From contig OX597815.1 in the NCBI GenBank assembly GCA_951406725.2, positions 89,218,001 to 89,282,000 of the forward strand: DNA of 64,000 nucleotides, written 5' to 3'. The position numbers were made by a program, and so were the translations under genes. Below are positions 46,678-50,083 of the stretch, piece after piece (positions within the stretch are counted from its first letter, which is position 1; every line of letters starts with the position of its first letter). This DNA is from Octopus vulgaris. Lineage: Eukaryota. Below the pieces are notes generated by a model. The model was not told the DNA's origin, ran no database searches, and was given only the letters and a program-made list of their open reading frames with translations.

Positions 46678-46897
46678 TATATAAGCAATAATAAATCTCT
46701 GAACGAGATATAGACAGTAACTGCACGACAATGTGAAGTATATCTCCCTTCTAAATATGGCTAACCACTAAGGGTGGATGTTACTGTAGCTTGTAGCCCC
46801 AGGAGAACATCTTCTCTAGCTGGCTATTGACACACTTTATGTGACCTATCGGTATTTGCAAAGGGAGGTCATCATTCCCTTGTCAACCTAAGTGATA

Positions 46898-46942
46898 CGC
46901 ACGGACTGCAGTTTCTGGGTATTGACCCGTCAACAGCACACG
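46898..46942 (-). ncRNA. type I hammerhead-like motif (A6U core variant)
   Basis: Minus strand: CGTGTG-CTGTTGA-C-GGGT-CAAT-ACCC-A-GAAAC-TGCA-GTC-CGTGCG. Confidence 0.7.
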
Positions 46943-46948
46943 ACAATC

Positions 46949-48598
46949 CGCTTTCTCTTTATTATAGGCATGTAGCCTGAATATAAAAAGGACATTACAA
47001 TTCACATAGAAAACAATGCAAAATTTGGGGTACATAAAACAAATAATGAATATGAAACGAGTTATGTGTGATGGGAAATGGAATGGCTTACGAGTCCCCT
47101 AAGCTCGCAGTTTCATTTATACATTTTGCAACTGTTCCACTTATCCATCAGTTATATGTTCGATAACATCCTCCATCCCAATCACGTTGGGCAGACTATC
47201 ATAGCGAACGTCTATATTACTTACTTTAGTCTTTCCTTTAAATGTCTCTATCAATTTGTCTATTTTTTTCTTTTTCTATTAACACCGCTCTAACGCTTGG
47301 TTCGAACATGCCGTTTTCTAATTTCACTCGTGTCAGTCCTTTTGTTTTTGTTAATTGTTTTTCAATCTTCATATTTTTTTCGTAAAAAATTAACCTTCTT
47401 ACATTCTCTCCCCTAGGTCGTCCTGTTTGTTTTACATAATTTACTCTTTCCATCACCTTCCTCATCCATTCTTCGTATTTCTCTTTTCTGGTTTTACCTT
47501 CTTCACTCATAGTCATTGTCTTCAGTTCCTGGGTTCGACTCTCTGTACTTTTTCCACTTGCTGTTGTCTTTCTTCCTTCATTTTCTACTTTACTTTTCTT
47601 TGGGCTTTTTGGTGATGACTCCACCCTTTTTCTCTTTTTTTCTGCCGTTTTTTCTTCAACTTTTCCTCTTCCTCTTTTTCTTCTTCCTCCGCTCTCGCAG
47701 CGTCACTGCACATTTCTACCTCTTCTGCCTGCGCTTCTCTTAGGGGACACCTTGCTTGCATATGTCCCATTCTTTTACAGTTATAACATATTGCTGGTCT
47801 CCCCTCCACCACAACTCTCAGTAGGGTTTCGTCGGGGAGCACTAACTATTCCGCAATGTTATACAAATCTGGCAGGGTCATATGTATCAGTGCTTCCACA
47901 CCATAACCCCACCGGTTGACGTCTCTCGAGTTTTCAACCTTTAGGATGTCCACATCCTCCTTACAGTTATAAATTATCGCTGCTACAAGTCTCTCTACCT
48001 TTAACTCCGGCGGCACCTTTCCTATTTTCACCATAACTGCTCGTTTTCCACAATAGGACGGAAGAAGCACCCACCTAGCTGTTCTTAATATCATGGTAGC
48101 GTGTTTCTTGGCCTCCTCCTCACTTTGAGACCGCACCTCCACGGTGGCGAACTTCCTTCCTCTTGCGTAGAAGGTCGTTCTGTCTTTAATTTCCGTAAGA
48201 CATTCCTTAATGCCGTCTGTTCCTACCACTTCTATTTTCTTGTTGGCCACACTCCAACGTTCTATATACAATAATCTTTTTCCTCGCTTTTTCTGCGTCT
48301 TCCTCCGACGGTGTGATCCGTAAGCAATCACCCTCCTTCTTGAAATCCTCGAAGTATTTCTTCAAAACTTCCTTCTCAATTAATACTTCTTTCAACTGCG
48401 ACATGTCGGCCGACAGGACTTTGCCTGCTGCCTGGGCCTAACTTGTTGTTTGCATACCCACAAAGGGTAGCTACAAAATAATTTTCACAATTCAACTACA
48501 ATAGTACTTTCAACAATAAAATTTCTAATAACAATTTCTGCAACTCACAATATCGTAAACTCCAACTCCGCAAAAAGCAACACTTCAACGACGCACGT
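46949..48598 (-). mobile_element. ORF1-only (HAL1-like) L1/Tx1-related retroelement
   Basis: ~190-nt 5' UTR, single disrupted ORF, T-rich 3' UTR with AATAAA and a short purine tail. GACAATC is duplicated at 46942-46948 and 48599-48605. No RT or endonuclease motif seen. Confidence 0.75.
47115..48404 (-). pseudogene. ORF1/Gag-like protein with CCHC zinc knuckle (~430 aa, disrupted)
   Basis: ORFs 48207-48404, 47846-48331, 47585-47842 (in frame after one stop) and 47238-47624 join up. Contains LRVVVEGRPAICYNCKRMGHMQARCP (Cx2Cx4Hx4C) and a K/E-rich C-terminus. Confidence 0.8.
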
Positions 48599-48871
48599 GA
48601 CAATCACCGGTTTTCGATGGAAGGATCTCAATGCAAATACATATATCCTTTTTCCAGTGACTTTTCGTCACTGATCTTGAAAAAGTGTAAACAAGCAATA
48701 ATTAATCTCTGAACGAAGTATAGACAGTAACTGCATGACAATGTTCCACTTATCCATCAGTTATATGTTCGATAACATCCTCCATCCCAATCAGCTGGCT
48801 ATTGACACACTTTCTGTGCCCTATCGGTATTTGCAAATGGAGGTCATCCTTTTCTCGTCAACCTAAGTGAT

Positions 48872-48918
48872 TCGCACGGACTGCAGTTTCTGAGTATTGA
48901 CCCGTCATCAGCGCACGA
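48872..48918 (-). ncRNA. type I hammerhead ribozyme, intact core
   Basis: Minus strand: TCGTGCG-CTGATGA-C-GGGT-CAAT-ACTC-A-GAAAC-TGCA-GTC-CGTGCGA. Stem I is 7 bp; stem III is the palindrome ACTGCAGT; GUC cleavage site. Confidence 0.82.
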
Positions 48919-49421
48919 CAATCACCGGTTTTCGATGCAAATACATATATCCTTTTTCCAGTGGTTCTAAAAACTGAATACCAACACACACAGTGAACAG
49001 ACTACAGCGATGAGGCACTACATTACTGATTTATGATTACAAAATGGAATATTTACTGTCAAAGAAACTAGGGCATGCGGATGGTTTAGCCAGACTGATG
49101 CCAAAACACTGCGAGACATTCGAAGATACAGTATTTGTAACATAAAGATCAACAGGAGAAATGAAAAATGCAATGTGGAGTGTGGTACGCAAACTACCGG
49201 TGACACTTGGTGACATAAAACGAAATTTCGGAAAAGGTCAAGTTCATAACACAAATGAAAAGAATACTGTGGATAAGAAAAGTAAATAGGAACAGGATTG
49301 GTGCAAAACGTGAAACTATACTCAATTTGCGATGGTGTACTGATGCACGCACAGAGAGTTGTAAGACCCGAAACATTGCAAAAAAGAAAAAAATGGAGGG
49401 AATTTCATGTTGGACACACAT

Positions 49422-49657: not shown

Positions 49658-49718
49658 GCAGGGTACATATCTGAGTATGTGTGTTGTGTGCCTTCATACG
49701 CTAGCGTTCAAGTATTCT

Positions 49719-50083
49719 AAGGCAGAAACGCTAGCACGCCGGGCGAAATGCTGAGCGGTATTTTGTCTGCCGTTACGTTCTGGGTTCAAATTCCGCTGAG
49801 GTCGACTTTGCCTTCCACCTTTCGGGGTCAATAAATTATGTACTAGTTACGCACTGGGGTCGATGTAATCGACTTGAACCCTGTGTCTGTCCTTGTTTGT
49901 CCTCTCTGTGTTTAGCCCCTTGTGGATAGTAAAGAAATAGGTATTTCGTCTGTCTTTACGTTCTGAGTTGAAATACCGCCTTTCGGGGTCGATATATTAA
50001 GTACCATTTGCGTACTGGGGTGGATCCTATCGCCTGCCCCCACCCCCAAAATTTCGGGCCTTGTGCCTAGAGTAGAAAAGTAT
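49719..50083 (+). mobile_element. dimeric SINE, family A
   Basis: Full unit to ~49940, then a second headless unit restarting at GGTATTTCGTCTG with a different tail. Confidence 0.85.

Follow-up and report, generated by a model that had tools for sequence, protein, structure and literature searches.

Why does a protein-coding insert lie inside a hammerhead ribozyme repeat in an octopus genome, and how did it come to be there? The question is raised by positions 46683..48965 of a 64,000-nucleotide stretch of Octopus vulgaris DNA (assembly GCA_951406725.2, contig OX597815.1, positions 89,218,001 to 89,282,000 of the forward strand; hereafter the window), where a ~352-nt repeat carrying a type I hammerhead motif is interrupted by an insert (~1.64 kb) whose open reading frame (ORF) is broken. 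The insert is a decayed copy of a large family of elements that code for ORF1 only and resemble HAL1 (half-L1). It is very probably a dead derivative of a long interspersed nuclear element (LINE) of the L1 group, likely of the Tx1 clade, which was likely placed upstream of the core of a ribozyme-bearing retroelement, or retrozyme, by the enzymes of an autonomous LINE. The preliminary description of the window had proposed either a non-autonomous LINE targeting a ribozyme repeat or a protein-carrying retrozyme; the former proposal is supported and extended here, since autonomous partners exist at the same site.

The interrupted repeat was abundant. Searched with the short unit, the 2.8-Gb genome from which the window comes returned 4,717 candidates, and the hammerhead core pattern gave 782 matches vs. 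0 for the control. Stem I was paired in 468 of 498 cells (83 distinct copies) vs. 351 ± 10 (maximum 378) after re-dealing the 3' strands, a comparison that bears no probability value because the copies are related; swaps among copies included G-C/A-U and C-G/G-C. Rfam returned no hammerhead match across the window or at the locus, and the minimum-energy folds of both motifs of the locus were not better than those of shuffles (z = -0.74 and -0.05). The identification of the ribozyme therefore rests on motif and covariation, and by these the hammerhead motif of the repeat is not a chance occurrence. Copies occurred as monomers, partial tandems (period ~352 nt) and inverted pairs, with their ends in microsatellites; they terminated at either of two points ~45 nt apart (~300 and ~350), and some plain copies started near positions 77-98. 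Subfamilies A and B were 62% alike. With a type I hammerhead, covarying stems and a non-coding tandem unit within 170-400 nt, the ~352-nt unit is, as far as its sequence tells, an abundant retrozyme of the metazoan type without long terminal repeats (non-LTR), with several dispersed subfamilies. Assembled contigs from three sequencing runs presumed to be of RNA, and from a fourth of unclassified kind, covered the retrozyme and parts of the ORF with similar profiles. Two other sets of copies were observed: subfamily C (L076, L077, L081, L082, L088, L095, L102, L103, L110) had a conserved CCGAUGA core (U4 to C) and intact stems, and subfamily D (L100, L101) had UUGAUAA-like cores.

LINEs and ORF1-only families were inserted 16-40 nt 5' of the retrozyme CUGAUGA core, with duplications of ~14-25 nt. 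Among the 30 top copies of one autonomous family, selected by LINE sequence alone and including the query's own locus, 28 led straight into a retrozyme, entering it at unit position ~77; the remaining two entered a remnant of the target and then the next LINE. PMC4494074 takes more than 20% of flanks in one repeat as the mark of target preference. These LINE copies were 95-97% alike, and their host retrozymes were 74-93% alike to unit A. The 3' end was scored in 22 of the 30 top ORF1 loci, selected by protein alone and including the window: 17 ended in a retrozyme (A, B or C), two were stacked at a target remnant and three lay elsewhere. Flanks were thus mostly retrozyme, and the chance insertion that unrelated flanks would have indicated was not supported. 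Eight full-length LINEs of ~5.3 kb, selected by their junction and hence not a sample, followed the 5' half of the retrozyme, preceded the ribozyme and showed a 14-nt duplication. A pattern joining TAATAAA to the hammerhead core matched 149 times vs. 5, with many different tails and offsets; ORF2 ends and several ORF1-only families were among its first 30 loci, as were some unrelated matches. Different families were stacked at the regenerated site in L104 and L165, and in the ORF tree (where the L009 and L015 rows were disregarded as long-branch artefacts of deletions) the labels of retrozymes A and B each appeared in several separated places. Near-identical LINEs in diverged retrozymes, stacked families and scattered tree labels, taken together, show that the copies do not go back to one founder; this suggests that LINEs and ORF1-only elements have inserted in retrozymes repeatedly and in a site-specific manner. 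The load on the retrozyme side was small, a LINE end being carried by 2 of the 46 intact-core ribozymes of contig 1.

The autonomous LINEs (~5.3 kb) coded for ORF1, an apurinic/apyrimidinic (AP) endonuclease, a reverse transcriptase (RT) and a C-terminal zinc motif, and PF03372, PF00078 and PF13966 scored above cut-off in ORF2 of L114 and L166. Over 211 aa, an intact relative of the insert ORF shared 35% identity (E = 5e-40) with the ORF1 that directly precedes the endonuclease-RT ORF2. Partner LINEs of the kind that the preliminary description had advised looking for thus exist, with a homologous ORF1 and a common 3' end motif. When ORF2 was compared with solved structures, a set holding few clades, human L1 ORF2p was the nearest (E = 9e-62 vs. 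1.7e-24 for R2); none of the homologues bore the name Tx1. RRM-type domains (RRM, RNA recognition motif) together with a CCHC knuckle are the ORF1 type of the L1 group and Tx1 clade. The autonomous partners and the parent of the ORF1-only elements belong to the L1 group and likely to the Tx1 clade.

A genome search with the ORF protein gave 14,238 candidates, of which 150 were scored; many open frames were of 440-490 aa and none exceeded 517 aa, the ORFs of the ORF1-only family being 430-480 aa. Some elements formed head-to-tail arrays with a period of ~1.8 kb and no ribozyme, and 3 of 15 stretches fetched beyond or around arrays ended in an element that coded for AP endonuclease, RT and zf-RVT after its ORF1. 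A continuation of the family into ORF2, which would have made the insert an ordinary deleted LINE, was not found: the ORF1-only unit stopped short in these head-to-tail units. Six off-target ORF1-only copies (L005, L021, L029, L067, L068, L089) bore target duplications of their own. The arrays at L091-L099, L112-L115 and L121-L124 held many near-identical intact ORFs, which indicates recent activity of ORF1-only families. In 16 computable ORF pairs dN/dS was 0.05-0.24 (11 further pairs were saturated), values by which ORF1 of these families is evidently held by purifying selection. The predicted protein model (18 natural sequences; pLDDT 73.5) had two RRM-like domains preceding the CCHC knuckle, with tandem-RRM structure matches (E = 4e-5; Z up to 8.7) and ZCCHC3-type RNA-binding domains among its Atlas neighbours; intact relatives are predicted to consist of two RRMs, a CCHC knuckle, a charged helical region and a C-terminal domain. 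Named protein homologues came from Octopus and Argonauta, which places the system in these two genera.

Some further observations concern these families. In public databases the ORF1 family members P0126, P0127, P0129 and P0138 are entered under names of octopod host genes' products, namely 'CCHC-type domain-containing' and 'EPM2A-interacting 1-like'. The arrays named above are long (e.g., G000:C4:70032000-70052000) and have several ORF1-only families stacked at one target. In the 3' flanks of L105, L107, L109 and L094, younger ORF1-only branches lay in other recurring repeats.

The window locus was oriented as a whole on the minus strand and ran from a truncated unit with a hammerhead, through the 5' segment of a second unit, the insert and the second hammerhead, to a tail entering (TA)n (Table 1). 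Two units of ~350 nt, each with a minus-strand type I hammerhead, had been described previously; the motifs and their C17 positions (48879 and 46904) stand, but the upstream unit is ~283 nt long and neither unit reaches the full ~350 nt. The two ribozyme regions formed a 131-nt repeat with 92% identity, offset by 1,975 nt. The insert (~1.64 kb) was confirmed, as was its target duplication on the 5' strand of stem I, which measures ~15 nt in the family and has decayed here to 7 exact bases. Equally sound were the single disrupted ORF of ~430 aa (~437 codons) with its knuckle above the Pfam cut-off, the AATAAA, located 6 nt ahead of the flank of the downstream ribozyme, and the lack of RT or endonuclease in the insert. 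Taking the intact copy in L002 as reference, the ORF ran from an ATG at 48455 to a stop at 47141-47143, with breaks near 48257, 47846, 47665 and 47269; with three frameshifts and one stop this copy is a pseudogene, as had been proposed. The survival of both ribozyme folds was borne out for the stems, which are intact, but the downstream core has become CUGUUGA through loss of A6, a base that we take to be conserved and needed for cleavage. Release of a 1,975-nt RNA by double cleavage, as envisaged earlier, is therefore unlikely at this locus. A 52-nt patch in the upstream unit met the retrozyme tail again at the short end-point and carried a base absent from 8 other family-copy matches, so that it was likely templated from the window's own ORF copy.

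Table 1. Features of the composite locus in the window.
Feature	Position	Strand	Basis
Upstream retrozyme unit, 5'-truncated, ~283 nt, ~352-nt family A	48683..48965	-	
Type I hammerhead with its core intact (CUGAUGA, 48911-48905) and a short palindromic stem III; cleavage predicted after C17 at 48879	48862..48928	-	
52-nt patch, exact copy of ORF 3' end of same locus (47133-47184), replacing ~90 nt of retrozyme tail	48742..48793	-	
Interrupted retrozyme unit, 5' segment with CAGTGAC/GTCACTG hairpin and TATA-like box (48645-48638)	48609..48682	-	
Target-site duplication, 5' copy (stem I 5' strand)	48594..48608	-	
ORF1-only non-autonomous LINE-like element (5' untranslated region (UTR), ORF, 3' UTR, AATAAA-GAGA end)	46952..48593	-	
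Broken ORF1, ~437 codons, three frameshifts and one stop	47141..48455	-	comparison with intact copy in L002
CCHC zinc knuckle, PF00098, 25.4 bits (cut-off 20.8)	47744..47788	-	Pfam
AATAAA, part of 3' end motif held in common with autonomous LINEs	46958..46963	-	
Target-site duplication, 3' copy, decayed; doubles as stem I 5' strand	46937..46951	-	
Downstream hammerhead, intact stems, core altered to CUGUUGA (46936-46930), C17 at 46904	46887..46936	-	
Retrozyme tail, stops at the family's long end-point, runs into (TA)n	46683..46886	-	

Two features neighbour the locus on the plus strand. At 49700-49945 a repeat, presumably like a short interspersed nuclear element, had a 3' end GCCCCTTGTGG..TAAAGAAA that resembled those of the ORF1-only family L091 and of the L114 LINE; L091-type/L114 LINEs may be its partner. 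At 49014-49145 a short frame contained the motif HADGLARL, which to us is reminiscent of the RNase H end of LTR-element pol; the frame 49014-49142 had no Pfam match.

Composites of LINE and retrozyme showed structures of the retrozyme kind. The inverted arm of L002 (676 nt, 98.2% identical to the main copy) comprised the 3' part of the ORF, UTR, ribozyme and tail, and the outer ends of this locus were the two retrozyme end-points, in microsatellites. Inverted arms with LINE sequence, ribozyme and tail were also present in L159 (385 nt, 97.1%), L172 (932 nt, 87%) and L158 (several blocks, 82-94%), and the ends of composite arms coincided with the two end-points of plain retrozymes (~300 and ~350). 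Loci L151, L154, L167, L170 and L171 had 5'-truncated LINE ends with ribozyme and tail and lacked the upstream retrozyme half. In L095/L117 a ~4.1-kb ribozyme-to-ribozyme unit was repeated head to tail at 96%, for which local duplication could account. The marks of Penelope-type insertion were thus present (partial tandems, inverted arms, a one-sided tail and microsatellite targets), and the retrozyme arm ends were like those of Penelope-like elements (PLEs), whose insertion marks include a 30-40-bp tail in the accessible text of PMC8557442. It is likely from these structures that LINE-retrozyme composites have been re-mobilised as retrozyme cargo. At the window locus, fresh insertion into a retrozyme dimer and copying of a composite both fit and are indistinguishable. 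At 40 ribozyme loci of contig 1, in 3 of which the position of the ribozyme was not fixed, no PLE or LINE ORF lay directly upstream; from the 46 contig-1 places on the list, 5 had been set aside, 2 of these being composites. A young and abundant Penelope-like family of 811 aa was also observed (L188-L217, e.g., L194 1501-2547), with RT, a weak GIY-YIG match and many near-identical copies. As in the retrozyme, it had (TA)n targets and two end-points, here ~40 nt apart; a hammerhead core was not seen in its 3' region. As the retrozyme's partner it found no support in sequence, the tails not being significantly alike (757 of 1,000 shuffles were as good).

These results can be arranged as a sequence of steps. 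The ~352-nt retrozyme subfamilies are dispersed genome-wide, whether as single units, in partial tandems or in inverted pairs, with microsatellites at their ends, and ~5.3-kb LINEs and ORF1-only families occupy one retrozyme position, later insertions stacking at the regenerated site. The LINE ORF2 protein would nick this site and copy ORF1-only RNAs in trans through the common 3' end, the conserved ORF1 protein being likely an RNA-binding chaperone. More tentatively, the insert might capture the retrozyme transcription start while the downstream ribozyme stays whole. Read-through RNA comprising LINE, ribozyme and tail would then, to judge from the structure of the composites, sometimes be integrated by the Penelope-type machinery of the retrozyme, which would give the LINE a second route of spreading.

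Several findings weigh against this account. The youngest ORF1-only branches stack at other repeats, away from retrozymes. The clade call is based on domain order, nearness to L1 ORF2p and behaviour, and the exact partner of the window's subfamily is suggested by a matching AATAAAGAGAAA end (L158, L175). No autonomous PLE with the retrozyme's ribozyme or tail was found in the one young PLE family and the contig-1 ribozyme loci examined. The duplicated target sequences differ among retrozyme subfamilies and several targeted retrozymes have decayed cores; given that insertion also occurred at a 5' duplicate with no core behind it, the hammerhead core is not the signal. The insertion site lay ~27-33 nt past the TATA-like box, a spacing close to that at the U6 genes of the same genome. 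The upstream element of those U6 genes had no clear match in the retrozyme and TATA spacing alone agreed, so that promoter capture is something we infer. In the same genome, variant U6 genes preceded by octamer-like and TATA elements formed a tandem array at L184-L187 (G000:C1:139.42 Mb) with a period of ~1.0-1.4 kb.

Hitch-hiking by itself, in which a few chance insertions of LINEs into retrozymes were amplified by Penelope-type machinery without any target preference, would agree with the composite copying evident at several loci and with the truncated LINE ends that lack an upstream retrozyme half (L151, L154, L167, L170, L171). It is improbable in view of near-identical LINEs that sit at a constant position in retrozymes only 74-93% alike, different families stacked at the regenerated site (L104, L165), many distinct types of tail-to-target junction and target labels scattered over the ORF tree. 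The protein-carrying retrozyme of the preliminary description survives as a likely secondary hitch-hiking, and is contradicted as a primary unit by the 2 of 46 ribozymes with a LINE end and by an ORF that moves alone with its own duplications. In its full form, modelled on the zinc-knuckle ORF upstream of Chlamys-2_cBra or on Terminon accessory ORFs, a dedicated protein-coding retrozyme or Penelope-like accessory unit would have the ORF as integral cargo of an RNA cut by two ribozymes, circularised and copied. The sense ORF between two ribozymes at the window and in L004, and the ~4.1-kb unit of L095/L117, would suit such an element, and PMC8557442 describes a PLE that combines a 3' hammerhead with a zf-CCHC ORF. 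We nonetheless regard it as quite improbable, because the ORF is homologous to LINE ORF1, has target duplications of its own and a 3' end of LINE type, occurs in large arrays without ribozyme, and is accompanied by a single ribozyme in most composites, the insert being present in just 2 of the 46 intact-core ribozymes of contig 1. Our first idea of the ORF as a Penelope/Terminon accessory gene was abandoned upon the finding of ORF1-ORF2 LINEs and target duplications.

Chimeras might also form at the RNA level, with an RT at the 5' end of retrozyme RNA jumping to the 3' end of LINE RNA, so that the junction would mark a transcription start and not a nick. The 3' junction does lie near the likely start site, some plain retrozymes begin near 77-98, and template switches are visible at inverted loci (L004/L083); but this leaves unaccounted for the off-target copies with duplications and, at the LINE 5' end, the upstream half of the retrozyme with its matching duplication of 14-25 nt. 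The paired duplications largely refute this scenario, which we consider scarcely credible. A bolder extension of the site-specific LINE account has three layers of parasitism: LINEs would home to the retrozyme transcription start, at a site set by structure or by proteins bound to the promoter rather than by sequence, and ribozyme-to-ribozyme RNAs of 2-6 kb, with ORF1 or a whole LINE, would be cut, circularised and spread by Penelope-type enzymes. We hold this to be rather unlikely; if true, protein-coding circular RNA mobile elements would arise repeatedly within an animal genome.

The system was compared with those described in the accessible parts of the cited texts. Site-specific insertions known for the Tx1 clade include those of Tx1L in Tx1D, Keno in U2 genes, Kibi/Koshi in microsatellites, and Tx1-Mar and SINEU-3 in Mariner-N4_AMi; other Tx1 families target LTR elements, and non-autonomous partners and stacked insertions are known (PMC4494074). 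The octopus LINEs share with target-specific Tx1 LINEs the AP endonuclease and RT, a fixed site in a multicopy repeat, ~15-nt duplications, stacked insertions that sandwich the duplication, non-autonomous partners at the same site and a possible use of target transcription. They differ in having as target a hammerhead retrozyme, hit across subfamilies with differing local sequence, itself RNA-mobilised and likely carrying the LINE along. 'Satellites' also figure as Tx1 targets in the tree legend of PMC4494074, and a retrozyme could be hidden under that term. Like HAL1 (PMC5753468), the ORF1-only elements are non-autonomous, code for ORF1 alone, derive from an L1-group element and move as a unit with a LINE-type 3' end and a target duplication. 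Unlike HAL1, they are of the Octopus lineage and not of mammalian L1 descent, so that the resemblance is in working only, and they have an RRM-RRM-CCHC type ORF1, are site-specific and form head-to-tail arrays often ending in an autonomous LINE. The retrozyme agrees with metazoan non-LTR retrozymes (PMC7229834; bioRxiv 10.64898/2026.07.22.740005), which according to the latter source derive from PLEs, in its type I hammerhead, non-coding nature, occurrence as monomers to dimers and size within 170-400 nt; LINE or ORF cargo sets it apart, and octopus is unmentioned in the main texts of both sources. With PLEs, including Chlamys-2_cBra and Terminons (PMC8557442, PMC6431247), it shares partial tandems, inverted 5'-truncated arms, a ~45-nt one-sided tail, microsatellite targets and a 3' hammerhead; unlike PLEs, it has no PLE RT or GIY-YIG, and its ORF is LINE-derived and not PLE-derived. 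In the titles and abstract openings searched (Repbase/Dfam, subscription papers, figures and supplements being outside this scope), we found no LINE targeting a hammerhead retrozyme, no octopus retrozymes and no comparable ORF1-only families. Tx1 targeting of other repeats is already known; no publication that names a ribozyme retroelement as the target came to light in these searches.

For annotators, the results mean that ORF1s of LINE-derived families stand in databases as host 'CCHC-type domain' proteins. As one position is hit across diverged sequences, site choice by AP-endonuclease LINEs becomes directly testable. Penelope-type machinery may copy multi-kilobase cargo given a 3' ribozyme and tail, which would offer a handle on the PLE mechanism and on gene gain by retrozymes. 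In this mollusc, ORF1-only LINE derivatives thrive under purifying selection, the self-cleaving retrozyme represents a new target class for site-specific LINEs, and two retrotransposition systems, LINE and Penelope-type, would be linked.

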